Source: an uncultured Gammaproteobacteria bacterium (lineage in GTDB: Bacteria; Patescibacteriota; Patescibacteriia; Magasanikbacterales; GWA2-37-8). Taken from it: a DNA stretch of 64,000 nucleotides. Shown here in pieces: positions 3,364 through 32,855 of this stretch; position 1 is the stretch's first letter; each line of letters opens with the position of its first letter. Position numbers and translations under genes: made by a program. The notes under the pieces were generated by a model that was not told the DNA's origin, did no database searches, and saw only the letters and a program-made list of their open reading frames with translations. The stretch is taken from positions 978-64,977 of the forward strand of contig CAZWKA010000008.1 in NCBI GenBank assembly GCA_964634875.1, given 5' to 3'.

Positions 3364-3436
3364 GCGCCCATAGCTCAGCGGTTAGAGCGCCACCCTTATA
3401 AGGTGGATGTCGATGGTTCAATTCCATCTGGGCGCA
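3364..3436 (+). tRNA. tRNA-Ile, anticodon UAU (reads AUA)
   Basis: Manual cloverleaf. Acceptor GCGCCCA/UGGGCGC; D-arm GCUC..GAGC; anticodon stem CCACC/GGUGG with loop CUUAUAA (U33, anticodon UAU, A37); T-arm GAUGG-UUCAAUU-CCAUC; discriminator A. No encoded CCA. Confidence 0.8.
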
Positions 3437-3460
3437 CATTTTATCTATAACCCAGAGCAT

Positions 3461-10530: not shown

Positions 10531-11286
10531 TTATTGCTCTTTTAAAAAATTTTCCCAAATAGCGAAGGGAATAGTTCCTTCCACTTTTTCACCATTAATG
10601 AAAAAAGTCGGTGTCGCTCGCACCCCAAACTTGGCACCATCTACATAATCACGGTTAACTGCGGTCTGGGCATTAGAGGTAGCCAGGCAGCGTGCGAGAG
10701 AAGTTTGGTCAAGCTGGGTGGCGCCGACGAGCGTCGCCAGATCTGTTTCACTGAGCACTTCGGGCAACTCGGCTTGGTGGTCAAAAAAATAACGGAGTAC
10801 TGGCCAAAAACGACCTTGCTGCTGGCCACACCAAGCAATCTCAGAAAAACCTGAGGCTCCAGGGTGAGTACTTTCAACCGGGAAGTGACGGACAATGAGC
10901 TTGATTTTGCTACCGTACTTTTCAATGACTTGGCGCATGATTGGTTCGGCGGCAGCGCAATTAGGGCATTTGAGGTCGAGAAACTCTACGACCGTAACAG
11001 GTGCATCGCTCGCTCCCAGGTACGGGCTGTCCGAGCGTTCCAGATCAGCTCGATTGACGGTAACTGACCCGAAAACAGGGCTTGCTTGCTGACCACCAGC
11101 GGCACTTTTTCCGGAATAGACGGTGTTTTGAAGCTGCGCCCCGCGGCCACTCTTAATTTCCTTTAAATACGTATAGGTAACCGCTCCCAACACCCCAATA
11201 AAGACCAAAATAACGAACAAAATAATGCAGAGCATGATCCCCCACCACCGTAAATACCATGGTTTTACCGACCCAACTGTGTCCAT
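10531..11286 (-). CDS. DsbA-like thiol:disulfide oxidoreductase (membrane-anchored thioredoxin fold)
   Basis: N-terminal TM anchor and CPNC active site (..FLDLKCPNCAAAEP..). DsbA-family layout. Confidence 0.7.
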   Translation of the reverse strand: MDTVGSVKPWYLRWWGIMLCIILFVILVFIGVLGAVTYTYLKEIKSGRGAQLQNTVYSGKSAAGGQQASPVFGSVTVNRADLERSDSPYLGASDAPVTVVEFLDLKCPNCAAAEPIMRQVIEKYGSKIKLIVRHFPVESTHPGASGFSEIAWCGQQQGRFWPVLRYFFDHQAELPEVLSETDLATLVGATQLDQTSLARCLATSNAQTAVNRDYVDGAKFGVRATPTFFINGEKVEGTIPFAIWENFLKEQ

Positions 11287-17468: not shown

Positions 17469-18651
17469 ACCCGATAAACGCGGGCGTCAAAGTACCCAAA
17501 ATAAAATCATTCCGCTTACGCTCCGGACCCTTTGCAATGCCCACAACCGGGATAGTGATCTGGCGCTCGCCTAAAACCTGGTTAACTTTATTAACTTGTG
17601 GTCGCCCCCCATCGATCAAAAATAAATCGGGTAAAGGCCACTCCGGATGATTGAGCCGTCGATTAATAACTTCCGCGAGCGAGTCAACATCGCTTTGTCC
17701 TTCAACGGTTTTAATTGTAAACTTCCGGTACTGGCTTGAGACCGGTCCGCTGTTATCAAACACGACCATGCTCCCCACTTTATCAACCTTACCCAGATTA
17801 GAAATATCATACCCTTCGATACGCAGACGTTTACTGCCAGGCTCGCTCGTCGCCGTGTCCGCATAAAAACTATTATTGAGGAGCGCGACATCATGGATGC
17901 GGTAGAGTGATTGCAATTGATTACGCAGGCGTGCCGCAGTTTCAAAATTTTGAGCTTTACTCGCGAGCTTCATTTGCTTTTCAAACTCTTTCACAACTTG
18001 TTTTTTCTTACCATCCAAAAATAAACTGAGGGGACGGATAACCAATTCCTGATACTCCTTTGCAGTGATCGTACCCATACACACCCCCAAGCACTGATCA
18101 ATCTCATAATAAAAACAAGGCCGCCCGACGCCCGGCTCACAGGTTGAAAAACAAAATAACTGACGCAATAATTTGAGCGTTGCTTTGGCATTAAGCCCTG
18201 GGAACGGACCGAAAATTTTTGTGTATTTATTTTTAATTTCAGTGCGGGTCATTGCTTCCAGGTCATGTTCGCGCGCGGTGCGCAGGGACGGAAAAATATC
18301 TTTAGTCAGCACCAAATAATTCCAACTCTTATCATCTTTACCGAGCACGTTATACTTAGGGTGGAAACGCCGGATCGACAAAGCTTCCAAAATAATTGCT
18401 TCCAGTACTGAATCAGTTTGTCGATAATCAATTTTAACAACCTCATGAATCATTTCTTCAATAGGCCGCGGCGTACGCTTCCCACGGAAGTAACTCCGGA
18501 CTCGACTGCGTAGCGAGGTGGCTTTGCCAACATAGAGCAATTCTTTGTTTTTGCCATAATACAAATAAATCCCTGGAGTGTCGGGGAGCTGGGTCGGGTC
18601 GCTCAAATACTCTTCAAGAAGTAACGCCATAGGATATGAATAGTATAACAA
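17374..18651 (-). CDS. uvrC: Excinuclease ABC subunit C, short form (GIY-YIG + Cys-rich + RNase H-like; no obvious HhH tail)
   Basis: GIY-YIG motif (PGIYLYYGKNKELLYVGKATSLRSRVRSYFR), UvrC Cys motif (RPCFYYEIDQCLGVC), and C-terminal ..IDGGRPQ... 425 aa, shorter than the usual ~600. Confidence 0.7.
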   Translation of the reverse strand: MLYYSYPMALLLEEYLSDPTQLPDTPGIYLYYGKNKELLYVGKATSLRSRVRSYFRGKRTPRPIEEMIHEVVKIDYRQTDSVLEAIILEALSIRRFHPKYNVLGKDDKSWNYLVLTKDIFPSLRTAREHDLEAMTRTEIKNKYTKIFGPFPGLNAKATLKLLRQLFCFSTCEPGVGRPCFYYEIDQCLGVCMGTITAKEYQELVIRPLSLFLDGKKKQVVKEFEKQMKLASKAQNFETAARLRNQLQSLYRIHDVALLNNSFYADTATSEPGSKRLRIEGYDISNLGKVDKVGSMVVFDNSGPVSSQYRKFTIKTVEGQSDVDSLAEVINRRLNHPEWPLPDLFLIDGGRPQVNKVNQVLGERQITIPVVGIAKGPERKRNDFILGTLTPAFIGFVDEHRSLLVRVRDEAHRFAITFNRSKRSIK

Positions 18652-18717
18652 AAAACTGGCACTTGAAAAGCAATAAGGTTCCTGGTAGGGTCAAAGCAAC
18701 TCACGAAGGAGAGCGCC

Positions 18718-19182
18718 ATGTCTCGAGCCGTCAGTATCGCAACTACCTTGACCAGCCTCCTCATTGGCGGGTGTAGCTTCACCACCCCTGCTACGGCACC
18801 GCCAAGTGATCCATTCTCGATGTGCGACGCCAACGAGGTCTGCCTCGCGATCGAGCTCCGGACACCGAACAGCACGCCGAATCGCTTCGAACAGTGTGAC
18901 AGCATCAGCGGAACAGCCATCGCGACCGATTGTGACGGTGCGACCATCAAGATGGCCGACCTCAAGATCGGGGCGCCGAAGTGTGTGATACCAGCCTACT
19001 GGACGATTCACGTCCCGCCGCTCTCCTGTCTACTCACATTCGATATCACCGCCGAAGCGTTCCTGAGCGAGAACAGCGAGTTCGTCACTGGCGTAGAACG
19101 TATTGCCGACATCGGACCAACCCAGCTCGACGGCCGGGAGCGTACCAAAATTCAGATGGTTCTTACCTCCAGCGCCAAGTAG
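18718..19182 (+). CDS. Lipoprotein (hypothetical), high-GC foreign-looking gene
   Basis: Signal peptide plus lipobox LLIGGC. SD AAGGAGAG 6 nt before the ATG, and a TTGAAA-17-TAGGGT promoter-like sequence upstream. GC about 58-60% vs ~46% in flanks. Confidence 0.55.
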   Translation: MSRAVSIATTLTSLLIGGCSFTTPATAPPSDPFSMCDANEVCLAIELRTPNSTPNRFEQCDSISGTAIATDCDGATIKMADLKIGAPKCVIPAYWTIHVPPLSCLLTFDITAEAFLSENSEFVTGVERIADIGPTQLDGRERTKIQMVLTSSAK

Positions 19183-19254
19183 CCCCCCCTGTTAGCGTGG
19201 AGCGAGAAAAATTTTCACTTCTCGCTCCACCCCCTCCCTCATACTAAAAATAAA

Positions 19255-19283
19255 AAACTCCTGACACCGGGAGTTTTTTTATT
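19255..19283 (+). terminator. Rho-independent terminator
   Basis: Hairpin AACUCCUG-ACACC-GGGAGUU followed by UUUUUUU. Confidence 0.6.
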
Positions 19284-19385
19284 CTGTTCCTCAATACTTT
19301 TTTTAAAAGTGCTAAGGAACATCGGCCAGGCGCGAATCGAATCGCGGCCTGACCGGAAACCCTGCGGGTGCAGGGTGTGGGAAAG

Positions 19386-19853
19386 TTATTTCTTGCGAAG
19401 GGCGGCGTGGTAGGCGCCGTCGACCTGCACCGTGCAGATCATCTTGACGGTGGTTGCGCCAGTATAGTAGGTGCTTCCGACTTCGATTCGCTCCGAAGCC
19501 ATCATCCCCATCTCCCCCGTGGCGAGCGAGTGGATCTGCTCACCCGCCTTGCAGATCAGAAGCCCGATCTGGTGCGGACGCGAATCGCTCGCATCACTTC
19601 CATACAGGAGAGCGAGCTTTTCGCCATCGGGGATATTCCGCACCGTGACCCACGCCAGCTGCTCGGGGATAAGCCCGGTGGCGGTAAAATCGGCGTAGTA
19701 GTAATCCTCGAGCTTAGAGTCGTAGATCGGAATCGGCTCGAGCACCTCACCGCAGCCAACGAGCGCGAGAGCGACGAAGGCGAAGGTGGCGATGCGGGCG
19801 GAGACGGAAGCAAACTTCTTGTTCATGACTTTGGACTCCTGGGACGAAAACAC
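19386..19853 (-). CDS. Lipoprotein (hypothetical), high-GC foreign-looking gene
   Basis: Signal peptide plus lipobox ALVGCG. AGGAG SD 9 nt upstream on the minus strand. High GC. No domain recognised. Confidence 0.55.
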   Translation of the reverse strand: MFSSQESKVMNKKFASVSARIATFAFVALALVGCGEVLEPIPIYDSKLEDYYYADFTATGLIPEQLAWVTVRNIPDGEKLALLYGSDASDSRPHQIGLLICKAGEQIHSLATGEMGMMASERIEVGSTYYTGATTVKMICTVQVDGAYHAALRKK

Positions 19854-20058
19854 GCGTATCCGACGCGTGACGGGTCAAGGCGATACCGTGCGCAGAGCAA
19901 AGCAAATTTCGCTCTCCTCTGCGCACAGAATACACTACACCCAATTGTAAAGAACAAAAAACCTGCGGCTTTTGCCTACAGGATGCCTCAGCATAGCACA
20001 CTTTTAGGCTTTTGTCAAGGGATACACGGAATATTTTGGCTAAAATGAGCCAAAATAC

Positions 20059-20092
20059 CAAAACGGAGCTTGGTCACAAGCTCCGTTTTAGC
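20059..20092 (-). terminator. Rho-independent terminator downstream of the uvrA paralog
   Basis: 13-bp stem AAAACGGAGCUUG..CAAGCUCCGUUUU with a U-rich tract following on the minus strand. Confidence 0.55.
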
Positions 20093-23340: not shown

Positions 23341-23610
23341 GAAGTCAGTTCTTTAACGAGTTCATTGACAAGTTACACCAAAATCACCTGTTCACCTAAG
23401 AGGCCGAATTGCGCTTTTTAGACTGCTCACACCTAAAAAGTGTTTTCGGTCTCTTAAGGTAACTCAAAAGAAAAATACGGAGGAACATCACCGAAAATTT
23501 CCCACAGCTTCGGCTCGAGGAAGACTTCGGAAAAAAAATAGATCATGCAACAAACACCTTTCACACGTTCAACCAACAACGGCAGGTAACCGCCCCTCGA
23601 AGGCAATGGA

Positions 23611-26079
23611 GTGACTCCCATGGCAGCACGCGGACACCCCACAATTGGAGCCCGGTTCGGAGCATTCTACGCGCTCCTGTGTGCGCTCGTCGCGCGAGCG
23701 AACGAGCGACCCGCCATCCCGGACGACGACAAGTTCCCGCCCGGCGTCCCCTACTCCGTCGGCAACGAGCTAGCGGAGCGCTTCAGCTTCTACGGCTTCA
23801 AGACGATCTTGAAGCAGTACCTGACGGCCCTCCTCCTCAACTTCGTCAACGAGGCGATGCTCCCCGCATCGGTCGTCGCCGACGCGATGGTGAAGAGCAC
23901 GGAGTACGTGCACCTCTTCAACGCGGCCGTCTACTCCTTCCCGCTGATCGGCGCCCAGATCGCTGATCGCTACCTCGGCAAGTACCGTACGATCTACTAC
24001 GTGTCGATCGGGTACGTGATCGGCCACGCCATCCTCGGTGTCGCCACTCACTTCGGCACCATCCACCTGTACGAGGCGGCCAAGATCTCCTTCGGCCTCG
24101 GCCTCGGCCTCATCGCCGTCAGCGCCGGCGGCATCAAGCCGTGCGCCTCCTCGAACCTCGGCGACCAGTTCCCGCCCCTCAGCAAGCTCATCCTAATCGC
24201 CTTCTCGCTGTTCTACTTCGCCATCAACTACGGCTCGCTCGGCGCCACGATCCTGACGCCGATCATGCTCGACAAGTTCGGGCCCGAGGTCGCTTTCGGC
24301 CTGCCCGGCATCGCGATGGCGATCGCCACGATCGTCTTCCGCATCGGCGAGAAGAAGTTCATCAAGGCGCCGCCCACCCCGGGCGGCAAGCTCGGGCTCC
24401 TCGATAGCCTCGTCACGACGCTGCTCCTGTCCCCGCTGTTCGCCACCGTCATCGGCTACTTCGTGCTCTGGCAGAAGGACGCCGAGATTGCCGAGAAGGC
24501 ATTCAACAAGGCTAACGAGGTGGCGATCCGCGCCGCCGAGGCTCTCGGCCAGACACCGCCGGAGTTCCACATCACGTGGAGCTTCGTCCAGAACTACCTC
24601 ACCAGCCACTGGTGGCTCTTCGCCCTGACCGCCGCCGCCATCACGCTCGGCTCCATCATCTTCATTGTCCGTCAGCGGCGGCAGCCCGACAATACGAGCT
24701 TCCTTCCCATCCTCATCTGGTCGCTGAAGAACCGACATCTGCGCAAGCAGGGCGACGACTTCTTCGATCCGGCCCGCAATAAGTTCGGCAAGGAAGCCGG
24801 TGACGGCCCCCCGGCCGTGCTCCGCATCATGGTGGTCTTCGGGATGGTCGCCGTGTTCTGGGCGCTCTTCGACCAGCACTCCTCGACCTGGGTCGACCAG
24901 GCCAAGATGATGGCTCTCCACCTTATCGTCCCCGCGTGGCTGGGGTACTGGACCCTCGCCACGTTCACCATCATCATCCTCTACGTGGGCATCGGGCTGT
25001 TCTGCCGCCTGGCCAACCGCCCGCCCAAGCGCCTGACCACCTACACCATCCTCGGTCTGCTCGCCTTCTCCGGCTTCCTCTCCGGCGGCCTCGACCTCTT
25101 CGGCCCGCCGATCGGCAACCGGGTCATCCCGGTGATCGTGAAGACGGACACGCCCACGAACCTGAACGAGGCGAACACCGTCATCAAGAAGAAGCTCCGC
25201 GAGGAAGTCAACGTCTCGGTGATCGTCGTCCGTTCGTCGGTCTACAACCCCAAGAAGGAGAAGACCACTCTCACGACGGCCGACTTCCGCCGTGCCACTC
25301 CGCTGGACGCGCTGATCGCGACCATCGGCCTTCCGGACGCCATGACCCCCGCCAACCTCGCGGAGGCCGCGCGTCTCGGGGTCGAGCTGAAGAACTACTC
25401 GAGCGTCAGCGCCTTCCAGGCCGACATCGAGGCCCGGCGTACCGTCAAGCTCAAGGAGCAACGGCCGCACACCCTCACGCTCATGATTTCCCCGTCGCAA
25501 CCCCAGGCGGCCAACCCGCTCTTCGTCATGATCATTATCCCGCTCCTCACCCTCATCCTCGGCTTCATCGCCACGCGCTACGGGATTGTGATCCGGCCGC
25601 TCTACATCATGGCCGTAGGCATGTTCCTCACTGCCTTCTCGTTCGTGATCGCCGCTCTCGTGCAGCGCCACGTGCAGGAGTCAGGTGAGGGCGTGGTCCA
25701 CGTGCTGTGGCAGCTGCCGCAGTACTTCAGCATGACGGTGGCCGAAGTGATGGTATCGATCACCGGCCTCGCCTTCGCCTACACCCAGGCCCCGCGCGCC
25801 ATGAAGGCCACCGTGACCGGCTTCTTCAACTTCACCGTGGCGCTCGGCAACCTGATCGTGGCCTTCCTCGCCCCGCTCGAAAAGCTCAGCCTCGCCTACT
25901 TCTTCTGGGTGTTCGCTGGCATCCAGGGTTTCGCCGCAATCATCTTCGCCATCCTCGTCTACTACTACGTGCGGCGGCTCAAGACGGACGAGCGGAAGGC
26001 CGAGAAGGCCACCCTGAGCGCCACCCCGTTCATCATCGACACCATACAGGCGCTCGAGGGCGAGAAGAAGTTGCCCTGA
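23611..26079 (+). CDS. POT/PTR2-family proton-dependent oligopeptide transporter, unusually long (822 aa) with a large hydrophilic insert
   Basis: PTR2 signature motifs GNELAERFSFYG, GGIKPCASSNLGDQF, FSLFYFAINYGSL and FWALFDQ. About 66% GC and SD GGAG upstream. A ~150-200 aa non-membrane segment (about nt 25130-25500) lies between late TM helices. Many overlapping ORFs on both strands are artefacts of the high GC. Confidence 0.8.
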   Translation: MTPMAARGHPTIGARFGAFYALLCALVARANERPAIPDDDKFPPGVPYSVGNELAERFSFYGFKTILKQYLTALLLNFVNEAMLPASVVADAMVKSTEYVHLFNAAVYSFPLIGAQIADRYLGKYRTIYYVSIGYVIGHAILGVATHFGTIHLYEAAKISFGLGLGLIAVSAGGIKPCASSNLGDQFPPLSKLILIAFSLFYFAINYGSLGATILTPIMLDKFGPEVAFGLPGIAMAIATIVFRIGEKKFIKAPPTPGGKLGLLDSLVTTLLLSPLFATVIGYFVLWQKDAEIAEKAFNKANEVAIRAAEALGQTPPEFHITWSFVQNYLTSHWWLFALTAAAITLGSIIFIVRQRRQPDNTSFLPILIWSLKNRHLRKQGDDFFDPARNKFGKEAGDGPPAVLRIMVVFGMVAVFWALFDQHSSTWVDQAKMMALHLIVPAWLGYWTLATFTIIILYVGIGLFCRLANRPPKRLTTYTILGLLAFSGFLSGGLDLFGPPIGNRVIPVIVKTDTPTNLNEANTVIKKKLREEVNVSVIVVRSSVYNPKKEKTTLTTADFRRATPLDALIATIGLPDAMTPANLAEAARLGVELKNYSSVSAFQADIEARRTVKLKEQRPHTLTLMISPSQPQAANPLFVMIIIPLLTLILGFIATRYGIVIRPLYIMAVGMFLTAFSFVIAALVQRHVQESGEGVVHVLWQLPQYFSMTVAEVMVSITGLAFAYTQAPRAMKATVTGFFNFTVALGNLIVAFLAPLEKLSLAYFFWVFAGIQGFAAIIFAILVYYYVRRLKTDERKAEKATLSATPFIIDTIQALEGEKKLP

Positions 26080-26270
26080 CCCCCAACCCAGGTGACCCGG
26101 CTGCCCCGCATGTTGTGCGGGGCAGCCGGCCCTTCCCTTTCTCCGCTTCACCGCGGCACTAGGGAAGAGGCAAGTGTAACTTGTCGCCTTCTTATCTGCT
26201 TCAGTCTGGAGCCAATAAGAAGACCCGAAATTATCCCGCCGAGCGGCGAGTATTTTATTTTCCTCAACCG

Positions 26271-26299
26271 TTGACATCACCGTAAAATCATGCTAACTT
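26271..26299 (+). promoter_or_regulatory. Sigma70-like promoter (TTGACA-17-TAACTT)
   Basis: TTGACA 26271-26276 and TAACTT 26294-26299, upstream of the second transporter gene. Confidence 0.4.
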
Positions 26300-26432
26300 C
26301 CTAAGTTAAGTTTTTTAAGGTACACCTTAACTATTCTCTTTGAAAACGTTAGCCGCTTGAAAACGTTTCATATCCTCGACCTGAGGATTGTGGGACACAA
26401 CAAGCTACTAGCAACACGCATGGAGGTTGAAC

Positions 26433-27827
26433 GTGAACAACAACCGACCCGACCTGTCGCGAGCACTGCGAAGCGCTCTTCAGGAGATCATCGCCCCGTT
26501 CCGCGATTTCATCCATGCACCGCGGGCGCTCTGGGGCGTGAACATCCCCTACTTCTTAGAAGGGCTCGTCTACTTTGGCATCCTGACTGTCCTCACGAAA
26601 TTCCTGTCCGAAAATGTCGGCCTTGGCGACATTACCGGCGGCTGGGTCGTAGGAACATTTACCGGCCTGATCACTGGGACAATGTTTCTCTTGGGCGGAA
26701 CGGCTGACCGTTGGGGCGTGCGCAAAGCGATTATCATCTCGCTGACGCTCATCTTATTAGGACGGATCATGCTCAGCTTGGGCGAACTGATGCACCTGGG
26801 AAACGGCTTGTTCGGCCCGCTCTTTAACCTCAGCTGCGCCGGACTCTTCATTGTTGCCATTGGGTACGGGATGTACCAGCCTGCGGCCTACGCCGGCGTG
26901 CGCCAGTTCACGAACGAAAAGACGGCGGCGATGGGTTACGCAATGGTCTACGCCCTCATGAACTTGGGTGCGTTTGGTTCGGGAATCATCTCCCCAATCA
27001 TCCGCCTCATCAGCAAGAACGCTTTTCCACCGAACGGCATCACGGGCGTTTTCTGGACCTACGTCGTGATCACCGGACTCGCGCTGATGCTGACCTTTGT
27101 CCTCCTGACACCAAAAACGGTACGGGCAAGCACGGCAACGAAGCTCGTTTCGGTCACGTCGCCAGTGTCTGAAAAGCCGCCACCTTTTTTCTCGAAGCGT
27201 TGGTTCAACGAGCACCCGCTCACGGACCTTCGGTTCACCTTTTTCATCTTCATCCTGATCCCGGTGCAGACCCTGTTCGCCCACAACTGGCTCACACTCC
27301 CCCTCTACATTGAGCGAGCCTACGCGGGCAATGCGAACTGGGTCAGCCAGAACTTCGAGTTCTTTGGCAACCTCAACCCGCTTCTCATCTTCATCCTGAC
27401 ACCGCTCGTCGCGGCTCTGACCGCAAAAGTGCCGGTCTTCAAGATGATGATCATCGGGACGCTCATAATGGCCGCACCGACCTTCCTCCTATGTCTCGGC
27501 CCCAAGCCCTGGGTCTTATTCATCTACATCTTCACGATGTCGGTTGGCGAAGCGCTGTGGCAACCCCGGTTCCTGCAGTACGCTTCCGAGATCGCGCCTG
27601 AAGGTCGGGTCGGCATGTATCAGGGCGTTGCCCAGCTTCCCTGGTTCCTCACCAAACTGGTGACTGCCGTGTACTCAGGCTGGTTCCTGAAGCACTACTG
27701 CCCCGCGACCGGCCCCAAGCACACCGAGGCCATGTGGTTCATCTACGGCCTTATCGCTCTGGTGAGCCCGATCGGCCTCTACCTGGCTCGCGGCTGGGTT
27801 GGCCGGTCGATTAACACGAAGCAGTAG
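26433..27827 (+). CDS. Second POT-like MFS transporter (12-TM, ~465 aa)
   Basis: GGTADRWGVRKAI matches the POT GGxxADxxxGxRKxI motif, and the hydropathy pattern is MFS-like. Start taken at the GTG 6 nt after a perfect GGAGG SD (the track uses TTG at 26427). GC about 58%. Confidence 0.65.
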   Translation: MNNNRPDLSRALRSALQEIIAPFRDFIHAPRALWGVNIPYFLEGLVYFGILTVLTKFLSENVGLGDITGGWVVGTFTGLITGTMFLLGGTADRWGVRKAIIISLTLILLGRIMLSLGELMHLGNGLFGPLFNLSCAGLFIVAIGYGMYQPAAYAGVRQFTNEKTAAMGYAMVYALMNLGAFGSGIISPIIRLISKNAFPPNGITGVFWTYVVITGLALMLTFVLLTPKTVRASTATKLVSVTSPVSEKPPPFFSKRWFNEHPLTDLRFTFFIFILIPVQTLFAHNWLTLPLYIERAYAGNANWVSQNFEFFGNLNPLLIFILTPLVAALTAKVPVFKMMIIGTLIMAAPTFLLCLGPKPWVLFIYIFTMSVGEALWQPRFLQYASEIAPEGRVGMYQGVAQLPWFLTKLVTAVYSGWFLKHYCPATGPKHTEAMWFIYGLIALVSPIGLYLARGWVGRSINTKQ

Positions 27828-27905
27828 ACCCTCCCCGCGACGATCTGCACCACACAGAACGTCGCGTATCTCCACTAGAAAGTTTTACAAATTTTTAGTG
27901 GAGAA

Positions 27906-31295: not shown

Positions 31296-32321
31296 TTATT
31301 TCTCAGGCGGCAAATAAACTGCATCGTCGTACACGTTGACCAGAGGGAAAATTTTTACCTCATTAACACTCAGGTTTGATCCGAAACTCCGCAGGTCGAT
31401 ATTTTTTGAGGCTAGTGACGTAAAATTATCAAGCGATAACGGCAGGAGGCCGACCAGGTTCTGATCCAAATACAGTCCCACATAAAACCGGGCAGTTTTA
31501 TAACTGTAGGCACTTTGGTTTGTTAGGGTGAAACGAATTATCTCAGCGTTAGCGCCACTCTCATCAAACTGGGGAATAAACTCAAAATTGCTCACCAAAA
31601 AATTAAGGCGTTCCCGCTGCCAGGTTTCTGGATCCAAAAACTCACGGTTCGACAAACGCTTCCAAGCAATATTATCAATCGTTAGGACTGCGCTATCCGG
31701 ATAGGTGTCAGCACTTAACCCCAAATAAGCCACCGGGCGGTTCTCGCGCGGCAAAAGCGTGGTCGTTTGGGACGGCGTCTTAGTTCCATTAAAACTAAAA
31801 TAATAATCGAAGGTGACCAAAAACCGCGGGTTGGAATTAACGACGTCAGCTACCAAATCGTACTTACCAACTCCGCCCGAGTACACTGCTGTACTCAGTA
31901 CTTCAAGCGGCTTAGCGGCAAAACGACTATTGAGTACGGTATAATTTTCAAAACTCGTTAAACCCCGGTCGACCTCAGCGCTTTCTTGTAAACCAAATAT
32001 AAGATACTTCCCCAGCGCAAACAACGAAAAGAAAGCTGTCCCAGCTGCCAGCGCCATAAGCGTCCCCACCAAAATCCGATACAACAGGAGCCGGTGACGG
32101 ACATACCAAAAACCATACTTTAGCTCTTGGCCAGTAAACTCACCGCTCGGATCAACATACTTCTCATAGTTCACTTTCTTGGCAGCAACGACTGGTGCGC
32201 GTCCTGTCGGGGAAGTGGAATGGTTGTTGGCATTATAAATATTGAGCACAAAATATGTAGGATATGATACTCCTAAGTATAGCCCAAAATTTCCATTTTG
32301 ACCACCACCCTTGACAGCCAC
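31296..32321 (-). CDS. Membrane-anchored hypothetical protein (true N-terminus uncertain)
   Basis: The track ORF runs to 32747, but its first ~128 codons overlap the rnpB gene and promoter on the opposite strand. The real start is therefore downstream: a candidate GTG at 32321, or the Met at 32057 just before the TM helix. The large C-terminal extracytoplasmic domain has no recognised family. Confidence 0.4.
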   Translation of the reverse strand: MAVKGGGQNGNFGLYLGVSYPTYFVLNIYNANNHSTSPTGRAPVVAAKKVNYEKYVDPSGEFTGQELKYGFWYVRHRLLLYRILVGTLMALAAGTAFFSLFALGKYLIFGLQESAEVDRGLTSFENYTVLNSRFAAKPLEVLSTAVYSGGVGKYDLVADVVNSNPRFLVTFDYYFSFNGTKTPSQTTTLLPRENRPVAYLGLSADTYPDSAVLTIDNIAWKRLSNREFLDPETWQRERLNFLVSNFEFIPQFDESGANAEIIRFTLTNQSAYSYKTARFYVGLYLDQNLVGLLPLSLDNFTSLASKNIDLRSFGSNLSVNEVKIFPLVNVYDDAVYLPPEK

Positions 32322-32325
32322 CTGA

Positions 32326-32354
32326 TTGACAAGAACGATGAAATATCGTATACT
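32326..32354 (+). promoter_or_regulatory. Sigma70-like promoter (TTGACA-17-TATACT) for rnpB
   Basis: TTGACA 32326-32331 and TATACT 32349-32354, about 8 nt before the P1 helix 5' strand. Confidence 0.55.
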
Positions 32355-32361
32355 ATTAACT

Positions 32362-32828
32362 CTATTACTGGTAATCGCCGGGCAAAAAGGCTCGGAGGAA
32401 AGTCCGAACACCCTTGTTTTTAACAAGACAATGGCAGTGGGTAACCCCCACCCCCCGACCTGTGAAGTATCGGGGAGGGACAGTGGCACAGAGACAATAC
32501 TAGCCCCGTCCACTTCGGTGGATGGGACCAAAGGTGAAAAGTGTATGGAGGTTCTGGTTCTCGAGACCAAAGCTACCATACTCGCCCTGGCTGTGAAGCC
32601 AGTGGCAGTGCTAAACCCTGCCTGGTGCAAGAGCAGCGTGCCGCGAAGCGTCAGAGAGGCGCTTTGCCTGGCGCGAAAAGTTCGCTCGCTTGGCTTGCCC
32701 AAATTCTCACGAATGAAGGCAGCCTGATTGCAACAGTAATGCTGCAACTAGAAAAATGATTATCTTCCCAATCTGTCTGCCGATAGGCAAGCCCGGTTGG
32801 GAAACAAAATTCGGCTTATAGTAATAGC
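32362..32828 (+). ncRNA. rnpB: RNase P RNA (bacterial type A-like), ~467 nt
   Basis: P4 5' strand GGAGGAAAGUCCGAACAC. P4 3' strand ACAAAAUUCGGCUUAUAG pairs with it, including the characteristic bulge. P1 pairing CUAUUACU (32362-32369) with AGUAAUAG (32820-32827). Internal matches to conserved stretches (GGGUAACCCC, AAGGUGAAAAGUG, UAAACCCUGCCUGGUGCAAGAGCA). Promoter upstream and terminator downstream. Confidence 0.8.
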
Positions 32829-32830
32829 GC

Positions 32831-32855
32831 AAAACCTTCCGCAAGGAAGGTTTTG
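32831..32855 (+). terminator. Rho-independent terminator of rnpB
   Basis: CCUUCC-GCAA-GGAAGG followed by UUUU. Confidence 0.55.

Follow-up and report, generated by a model that had tools for sequence, protein, structure and literature searches.

Bacterial genomes carry small islets of laterally acquired genes, which have an atypical GC content and codon usage and later drift towards the composition of the host, a process known as amelioration. Phage genomes provide a second parallel, in the form of morons, which are independent units of promoter, gene and terminator with a deviant GC content, inserted between two genes; small lipoproteins are common moron cargo. Here, we describe an element that can be compared with both, in a 64,000-nt stretch of DNA (positions 978 to 64,977 of contig CAZWKA010000008.1, GenBank assembly GCA_964634875.1; hereafter referred to as the window). 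The element (hereafter referred to as the islet) is about 1.3 kb long (roughly positions 18,660-20,020), lies between uvrC and the uvrA paralog uvrA2 and contains two convergent genes for orphan lipoproteins, lipoA (18718..19182, + strand) and lipoB (19386..19826, - strand). We consider it probable that this self-contained islet was acquired horizontally at an ancestrally contiguous uvrA2->uvrC junction, and that it spread after the lineages carrying it had diverged.

The islet stands out from the host in its composition. A maximum likelihood fit with two change points delimited a high-GC segment at positions 18,681-19,895, with a GC content of 0.576, versus 0.460 in the surrounding 5 kb. Host windows of 1,250 bp had a mean GC content of 0.462 (standard deviation 0.021, maximum 0.512), placing the lipoprotein patch at z = 5.4, and only this patch and a region at 23.0-28.5 kb (hereafter referred to as patch B) exceeded the mean by more than three standard deviations across the 64 kb. 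The tetranucleotide L1 distance between the lipoprotein patch and the host was 0.495, versus 0.266 ± 0.022 for host chunks (host maximum 0.334), and the lipoprotein patch was nearer to patch B (0.330) than any host chunk was (minimum 0.455). The GC content at third codon positions (GC3) was 0.72 for lipoA and 0.78 for lipoB, versus 0.47 for uvrC and 0.49 for uvrA2. The sliding-window GC and tetranucleotide checks proposed in an earlier reading of the sequence (hereafter referred to as the original prediction) therefore both marked the patch as an outlier. The GC step claimed in that prediction is real, but its borders differ from those given there, namely the uvrC start codon and a point just before the uvrA2 terminator: GC content begins to rise some 50 nt past the start codon of uvrC (ATG at 18630) and falls about 160 nt before the terminator of uvrA2 (20057-20092).

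By sequence similarity, the genome is that of a bacterium of the Candidate Phyla Radiation (CPR), Candidatus Magasanikbacteria. The closest relatives of its uvrC among 185,579 species genomes were metagenome-assembled genomes (MAGs) labelled Candidatus Magasanikbacteria, Magasanikiibacteriota or Patescibacteria, in agreement with the CPR affiliation guessed in the original prediction. Loci from related genomes are designated here by numbers preceded by L. Many of the MAG titles among L005-L084 read “uncultured Gammaproteobacteria bacterium”, though the MAGs concerned are Patescibacteria by uvrC/uvrA2 similarity and synteny; these titles look like placeholder taxonomy, because the MAGs bearing them interleave with named CPR MAGs.

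Of about 58 Magasanikbacteria loci covering both uvrA2 and uvrC, nearly all had the two genes side by side and in the same orientation. The gap between them ranged from 9 bp to 5.6 kb, and was only 9-55 bp long in about ten loci; the other gaps were occupied for the most part by unrelated genes specific to the lineage, several of which had a higher GC content than the flanks. The nearest genomes outside the clade carrying the lipoprotein pair (L007-L009) had other content at this junction, and no close empty-site genome (>90% UvrC identity) was found among the Magasanikbacteria loci. The junction is variable in content, and the lipoprotein pair represents an insertion present in a single small clade. 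The view of the patch as a real insertion was thus borne out by a junction that is ancestrally tight, and empty in about ten relatives. A different, low-GC lipoprotein family was observed at the same junction in L009 (two paralogs) and L016.

Besides the window copy, five distinct versions of the lipoprotein pair were sampled, through several assemblies made independently of one another: L001/L005 (NCBI MAG from SRP286056), L003/L004/L006 (Logan assemblies of SRR11567520 and SRR11567528, and an NCBI MAG from SRP257259), L217 (Logan assembly SRR12901024, covering only the uvrC side and the lipoB leader), L002 (Logan assembly SRR12404957) and L085 (a 1.3-kb contig from SRR23592405). The first four of these versions have the pair at the junction with uvrC, with unchanged gene order and orientation and, once more, a high GC content. 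In L085, the gene upstream of the lipoA homolog is not uvrC but a third Cys-rich lipoprotein gene (L085:2-388, GC3 0.70), and the cassette may therefore have a three-gene form or occur in other surroundings. Given these copies, the islet is not private to the window genome, the sisters of which include GCA_964510495.1 and the CAZINT01 assembly. In L001, an additional gene, sigma-70 region-4-like (L001:11418-11969), separates lipoB from uvrA2.

Transcription and translation signals were found for both genes. An AGGAG Shine-Dalgarno (SD) sequence lies 6 nt before the lipoA ATG (18707..18711, + strand) and another lies 9 nt before the lipoB ATG at 19826 (19836..19840, - strand). Among 46 large open reading frames (ORFs) in the window, all four high-GC genes (lipoA, lipoB and the POT and MFS transporter genes of patch B) had AGGAG or GGAG(G) at 6-9 nt, whereas even a weak SD-like match was present in only 2 of 42 host ORFs (Fisher p = 9e-5), so the contrast between patch and host genes noted in the original prediction held. 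The AGGAG of lipoA was invariant in four genomes and took the form AAGGAGG in L085; the GGAG core of the lipoB site was kept in four genomes. The SD sequences were conserved in all islet copies, including those of L002 and L085, although the adjacent leader bases differ, and this retention suggests that they are functional. A promoter-like site precedes lipoA at 18663..18691 (+ strand; TTGAAA, a 17-nt spacer and TGnTAGGGT); it was read from the sequence and falls below the -10 threshold of the scan tool, the evidence being at the level of the pattern, and it was conserved in the window, L001, L003, L002 and L085. The corresponding site for lipoB (19990..20018, - strand; TTGACA-17-TATGCT, with a TG extension) was conserved in four genomes. 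Promoter-like sites, SD sequences and terminators were thus conserved in four to five genomes, including L085 with its different upstream neighbour. The cassette therefore carries its own signals, given that L085 has the lipoA promoter-like site, the SD sequence and the block of hairpins between the two genes without uvrC upstream.

The silent sites of the islet are much less diverged than those of its flanks. Among the window, L001 and L003, synonymous divergence (dS) was 0.32-0.65 in the islet, versus 1.2-2.3 (saturated) for uvrC/uvrA2. Fourfold-degenerate sites were identical between the window and L001 in 72% of cases in the islet and 38% in the backbone (p = 8e-12), with corresponding values of 66% and 43% for L003 (p = 3e-6); the composition-adjusted excess identity at these sites was 0.50-0.67 in the islet and 0.13-0.33 in the backbone. 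The islet was the best-conserved DNA of the aligned region in these three genomes (nucleotide identity 0.81-0.94). The host neighbours RsmE and AhpC were only 58-64% identical between genomes, and lipoA 79-82%; with RsmE and AhpC this divergent and backbone dS saturated, the sister genomes are not close relatives. Synonymous changes polarised across the three close copies were biased towards AT in the islet (41 GC->AT versus 23 AT->GC) and not in the backbone (237:265), and a similar bias was found for changes at all sites in the islet (103 versus 66). An apparent mosaic upstream of lipoB, where the window resembled L002, merely followed the backbone split. According to the original prediction, homologs of the same high GC content at the same locus in sister genomes would indicate an ancient, lineage-typical island. 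Such homologs do exist, but an ancient island does not fit, because the silent sites of the islet are about three to five times less diverged than those of the backbone.

The predicted products are a 154-aa lipoprotein for lipoA (lipobox LLIGG before C19, six further Cys, predicted seven-strand beta-sandwich) and a 146-aa lipoprotein for lipoB (lipobox ALVG before C25, two further conserved Cys, predicted all-beta). The second gene of the original prediction, placed at 19386-19853, is real, but it starts at ATG 19826, and the GTG at 19853 merely opens the mechanical ORF. A lipoprotein rule of the PROSITE PS51257 type, coded for this analysis (K/R within the first seven residues, an uncharged hydrophobic stretch, and [LIVMFWSTAG]2-[LIVMFYSTAGCQ]-[AGS]-C, with the Cys at about 15-35), was satisfied by 9 of 10 family sequences, including both window proteins (Cys19 and Cys25), with the acceptor Cys at positions 16-26. 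The lipoA of L002 fails the strict pattern (N at -3), yet keeps ...SGC. The lipoprotein signal peptides that had been read in both genes were accordingly confirmed. The further Cys residues of both proteins were conserved among the copies, with the exception of C60 and C89 of lipoA, which were jointly lost in the most divergent copy; because they disappear together, these two residues are suggested to form a disulfide pair. The ratio of nonsynonymous to synonymous substitution rates (dN/dS) was 0.18-0.28 for lipoA and 0.23-0.36 for lipoB. Given the fit to the signal rule, the conserved Cys residues and these ratios, lipoA and lipoB are real genes, the products of which would be exported, lipid-anchored, disulfide-bonded beta-sandwich proteins of the cell surface.

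The fold of lipoA was predicted with confidence, and a search of the PDB with this fold returned only generic beta-sandwich matches, with weak matches (TM about 0.4) in a viral set. The matches included the Mfa2 fimbrial anchor (5nfi), ExsB/pilotin lipoproteins (2yjl, 5wec) and Bacteroides adhesin-like lipoproteins (3up6, 4q1z), with 7-19% sequence identity; the likeness is one of generic fold, with no Pfam family in common with lipoA and no specific function that could be transferred. No match by Pfam, NCBIfam or PDB sequence placed lipoA in the Mfa2, pilotin or Bacteroides adhesin-like families.

We propose the following course of events for an islet acquired horizontally and spread later. 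The islet would consist of two convergent single-gene transcription units, each with a sigma-70-type promoter-like site, an AGGAG and hairpin terminators, and its source would be a gene pool of higher GC content using SD sites, unlike the host backbone. Both lipoprotein precursors would be exported, lipoA Cys19 and lipoB Cys25 would be modified with diacylglycerol, and signal peptidase II would cleave off the signal peptides, leaving mature domains (about 13 kDa) anchored on the outside of the membrane. Three disulfides, C36-C42, C60-C89 and C72-C104, would be probable in the beta-sandwich of lipoA, and one in the all-beta domain of lipoB. The two products may be fast-evolving surface or envelope proteins for adhesion to, or interaction with, a host cell or the environment. 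The islet would have spread or been replaced among related lineages after their divergence, such that its copies would have a more recent common ancestor than the genomes carrying them, and it would now be drifting slowly towards the composition of the host.

Several observations weigh against this proposal. Foreign origin is argued from composition, signals and rates, and not from phylogeny, because there is no donor homolog for either protein. The uvrC-uvrA2 gap contains no integrase or transposase gene, the nearest tRNA is more than 15 kb from the gap, and the ends of the islet have no flanking direct repeats other than short repeats at chance level. The step of later spread is drawn from the silent-site rate contrast only, which selection on silent sites could mimic, and the flanks, just about 80% identical at the DNA level, are a poor substrate for homologous replacement. 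The GC->AT excess (1.8:1) is below the ratio of about 3.4:1 estimated for unconstrained decay, and the four-taxon site patterns within the islet (14:10:3 for lipoA) do not clearly conflict with the tree of the backbone. As for the surface-protein cargo, the model of lipoB is of low confidence (pLDDT 63) and gave no usable match in the fold search.

These points leave some room for an older origin, which we regard as a serious but clearly less probable explanation: a vertically inherited, lineage-specific island that entered or arose in the ancestor of the clade, in which GC-biased gene conversion, or selection acting on codons or on the structure of the mRNA, would keep GC3 high and silent change slow. 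The site patterns that do not clearly contradict the backbone would be expected of such an island, and the locus, gene order and orientation are alike in every clade genome covering the junction. The conservation of the SD sequence in all copies is in keeping with long residence, as is the composition of the L002 and L085 copies, which have diverged to saturation with GC3 still high (lipoB 0.80 in L002, and 0.79-0.88 in L085). The three- to fivefold contrast in silent divergence nevertheless argues against this explanation. The native, highly expressed L25 gene has a GC3 of 0.40, and codon selection is an unlikely cause of the high GC3 of the islet, because native highly expressed genes lack it. 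Furthermore, the GC->AT bias of the substitutions indicates a composition off equilibrium, and the GC3 of lipoA has fallen to 0.52 in L002. We therefore retain horizontal acquisition with later spread as the preferred reading.

The searches for homologs bear on the nature of the donor. A word-indexed search of 5.8 billion clustered proteins yielded four members for lipoA, and four were obtained for lipoB after a profile search; an exhaustive search of 1.84 billion representatives with a HMMER profile of lipoA returned only two proteins, both from the same small group. No homolog outside the clade was found for either protein in the 5.8 billion proteins, or for lipoA in the 1.84 billion. Neither protein matched Pfam, NCBIfam, PHROGs, PADLOC or PDB sequences, and the patch had no blastn match in 50,697 phage records. 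The original prediction had invoked a different donor, possibly an actinobacterial host. The first part of this claim stands insofar as composition and SD use set the patch apart from the host genome, but no donor can be named; the actinobacterial part was not upheld, as no actinobacterial or other outside homolog emerged from these searches. In our view, it is improbable that an epibiont with this genome recently received the islet directly from an actinobacterial host of high GC content. Such a transfer would agree with the GC3 of 0.72-0.78 and the SD use of the islet, which are typical of Actinobacteria among many other groups, and with the GC3 of about 0.80-0.87 back-calculated for the ancestral islet, which would have been higher still. 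It is contradicted by the lack of actinobacterial homologs and by the presence of the islet in at least five other sampled genomes, and the combination of high GC content with SD use fits many phyla, not Actinobacteria specifically. We know of no established host of Magasanikbacteria.

A still less credible alternative is that the ORFs are not genes, the patch consisting of GC-rich non-coding DNA or the true gene being an antisense ORF (e.g. 19368-20048, + strand). The patch does contain long ORFs on both strands, and a public gene call in L217 took the antisense frame of lipoA. However, dN/dS is well below 1 in the lipoA and lipoB frames, GC3 in these frames is far above the overall GC content of the genes (GC3 of the antisense ORF, 0.54), the start codon, SD sequence, lipobox and all the Cys are conserved among copies that are 28-82% identical, and the fold prediction for lipoA is confident. 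Finally, an assembly chimera, or a contaminating fragment joined into a CPR contig, would account for the sharpness of the compositional step at both ends, but can be virtually discounted, given that the uvrC/lipoA and lipoB/uvrA2 junctions recur, with conserved sequences, in independent assemblies from different sequencing projects (the NCBI MAGs from SRP286056 and SRP257259 and the Logan assemblies SRR11567520, SRR11567528 and SRR12404957, with SRR12901024 spanning the uvrC side plus the leader of lipoB).

The spacer of 203 nt that separates the two convergent genes forms five hairpins when folded (z = -8 to -9 versus shuffled sequences). This block is the best-conserved part of the islet, with an identity in the bin 19200-19350 of 0.94 for L001, 0.90 for L003 and 0.80 for L002; in L085, it is 78% identical across 85 nt, while the proteins are about 43% identical. 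The first hairpin (19197..19230), a perfect 12-bp GC-rich stem, directly follows the lipoA stop codon; L085 has a different sequence at this position, which likewise forms a hairpin. The second (19252..19279; A6-stem-T7) is a bidirectional intrinsic terminator common to both genes. The third is the AT-rich inverted repeat TGTTCCT...AGGAACA, which is single-copy in the window. The original prediction was right as to its presence, but the repeat lies at 19285..19321, 2 nt from the position given, and its arms are 17 nt long (14/17 complementary) rather than just 7 bp. Its TTCCTCAA.AC and AGGAACA boxes were invariant in five sequences. The fourth, a GC-rich hairpin (19322..19356), has a sequence-conserved outer stem, CGG.CAGG/CCTGACCG, and the last, a small hairpin CCCTGC/GCAGGG (19360..19375, - strand), comes first downstream of the lipoB stop codon. 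The L085 copy has other sequences, still able to pair, in place of hairpin 1, the stem of the terminator and the inner stem of the GC-rich hairpin, and its TTCCTCAA.AC and AGGAACA.CGG.CAGG boxes are retained unchanged. We read the block as a stacked terminator or 3' untranslated region module, which may also have a role dependent on its sequence.

The 5' leader of lipoB (19827-19983), of about 155 nt, contains three conserved hairpins on the - strand (19851..19982). The first is a 5'-terminal stem-loop with a U-run (19955-19982), and the second is long and imperfect (19872-19942). The third, CACGCGT-CGGAT-ACGCGTG (19851-19869), is invariant, resembles a terminator and lies shortly before the SD sequence. 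In the alignment fold of the leader, 15 of the 36 pairs had compensatory changes, a result that is suggestive, with only four sequences aligned, and the leader is a possible cis-regulatory element. No Rfam 15 family was recognized in the patch, including the hairpin block and the lipoB leader (best score 28 bits, versus a threshold of 50); the sub-threshold matches were all terminator-like and partial.

Two other candidates in the hairpin block were considered and set aside. A 27-codon mini-ORF (MFLSTFKKSIEEQNKKTPGVRSFLFLV; 19242-19324, - strand) runs through the AT-rich repeat and the terminator; its two differences from L001 are synonymous in frame, its frame is shifted in L003 by a 1-nt deletion, and it is probably non-coding. 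Integron attC sites have the box consensus RYYYAAC/GTTRRRY, which the repeat arms do not fit, and the genes here have their own promoters. When the 19-nt degenerate motif CTNAGGAACANCGGYCARG was searched for in contigs from metagenomes and viruses, at least 120 and 11 loci, respectively, were returned, and all those listed were chance matches: the pattern is too short, only a seed of 22-27 nt aligned, and there were no lipoA or lipoB matches.

The association between high GC3 and SD use extends beyond the islet. We surveyed 888 ORFs from about 80 Magasanikbacteria loci (L001-L085). An SD motif was present in 55% of the ORFs with a GC3 more than 0.2 above the locus median (internal control 9%; p = 5e-16) and in 6% of those with a typical GC3, equal to the internal control (5%). 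No Pfam family was assigned to 14 of 20 high-GC3 outliers; the others included POT, dihydroorotate dehydrogenase, RpiB and a sigma-70 region-4 protein. Patch B (23450-27900), the second and larger high-GC patch of the window, contains an SD-led POT/PTR2 transporter gene (23611-26079; GC3 0.92) and an SD-led MFS transporter gene (26427-27827; GC3 0.78). Sister genomes have different, non-orthologous high-GC POT, OPT or MFS genes at this place, and the POT and MFS proteins of the window share just 29% and 24% identity with the high-GC transporters of L003 and L002. This pattern supports recurrent import, as far as can be judged from sequence comparison. A tblastn search of plasmids with the patch B POT gave partial matches of about 30% identity from many phyla, which are uninformative as to the donor. 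Tsurumaki et al. (2022, RNA 28:1041, PMC9297842) reported that no anti-SD motif was detected in the 16S rRNA of about half of the Parcubacteria; the host genes of the window, essentially without SD motifs, agree with that report, which does not describe the minority class of high-GC, SD-led genes found here. None of the sequences analysed here contained a 16S rRNA.

These observations raise the tentative possibility of a compartment, making up about 5% of Magasanikbacteria genes, that is continually turning over and consists of high-GC, SD-led cassettes of promoter, gene and terminator drawn from an unsampled pool and exchanged at hot spots after the divergence of the lineages. If so, the cassettes would be mostly orphans plus transporters, the source pool would be a host or a mobile element, and exchange at hot spots such as the uvrA2-uvrC junction would be more recent than the divergence of a backbone that initiates translation without SD sequences. 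The lipoprotein pair and its 203-nt hairpin block would be one such cassette, and the TTCCTCAA.AC and AGGAACA.CGG.CAGG boxes could, beyond their part in a terminator, act as a site recognized in regulation or in the exchange of cassettes. The association of SD use with high GC3 would provide a simple, testable marker for imported genes where native genes do not use SD sequences. It also raises the question of how SD-led genes are translated if the anti-SD of the 16S rRNA is degenerate, as reported for part of the Parcubacteria. For the islet itself, presence at the same locus in sister genomes does not alone imply antiquity, and it is the depth of silent-site divergence that separates islet from flanks. 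Both of the orphan lipoprotein families are new, and they are candidate components of the cell-surface interface in an uncultured CPR lineage.

The surroundings of the islet and the rest of the window presented additional features. The start of uvrC is the ATG at 18630 (- strand), not the TTG at 18651, and the encoded UvrC is short (418 aa). A consensus scan identified a TG-extended promoter-like site for this gene at 18642..18669 (- strand; TTTTCA-16-TATACT), the TAGTATA of which is invariant across four genomes; its -10 box (TATACT) ends 12 nt before the ATG, and the uvrC mRNA would therefore be nearly leaderless. On the host side of the right junction, the uvrA2 terminator (20057..20092, - strand) is a bidirectional structure with a perfect 13-bp stem. 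Elsewhere in the window, synteny with the annotated loci of sister genomes identified a DsbA-like gene at 10531-11286. A bacterial RNase P RNA (138.6 bits; 32359-32834, + strand) overlaps the mechanical ORF 31296-32747 (- strand), at least part of which is, because of this overlap, probably non-coding. A tRNA-Ile with the anticodon TAT, an uncommon bacterial way to read AUA, was found at 3364-3437 (+ strand).

In comparison with known systems, the islet differs from phage morons in having no prophage context, phage DNA or PHROGs match, its flanks being the chromosomal DNA-repair genes uvrC and uvrA2. It resembles them, at the level of consensus and conservation, in that lipoA and lipoB are autonomous units of promoter-like site, SD sequence and terminator, with a deviant GC content, placed between otherwise adjacent genes. 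Unlike laterally acquired islets, it has no integrase, tRNA target, direct repeats or identifiable donor, and it occupies the same junction in several diverged genomes, yet with silent sites less diverged than those of its flanks. It resembles such islets in its atypical GC content, GC3 and tetranucleotide usage, its position between genes that abut in relatives, its surface-protein cargo and its GC->AT drift. Taken by itself, it is of an ordinary kind: a small, laterally acquired islet with surface-protein cargo.

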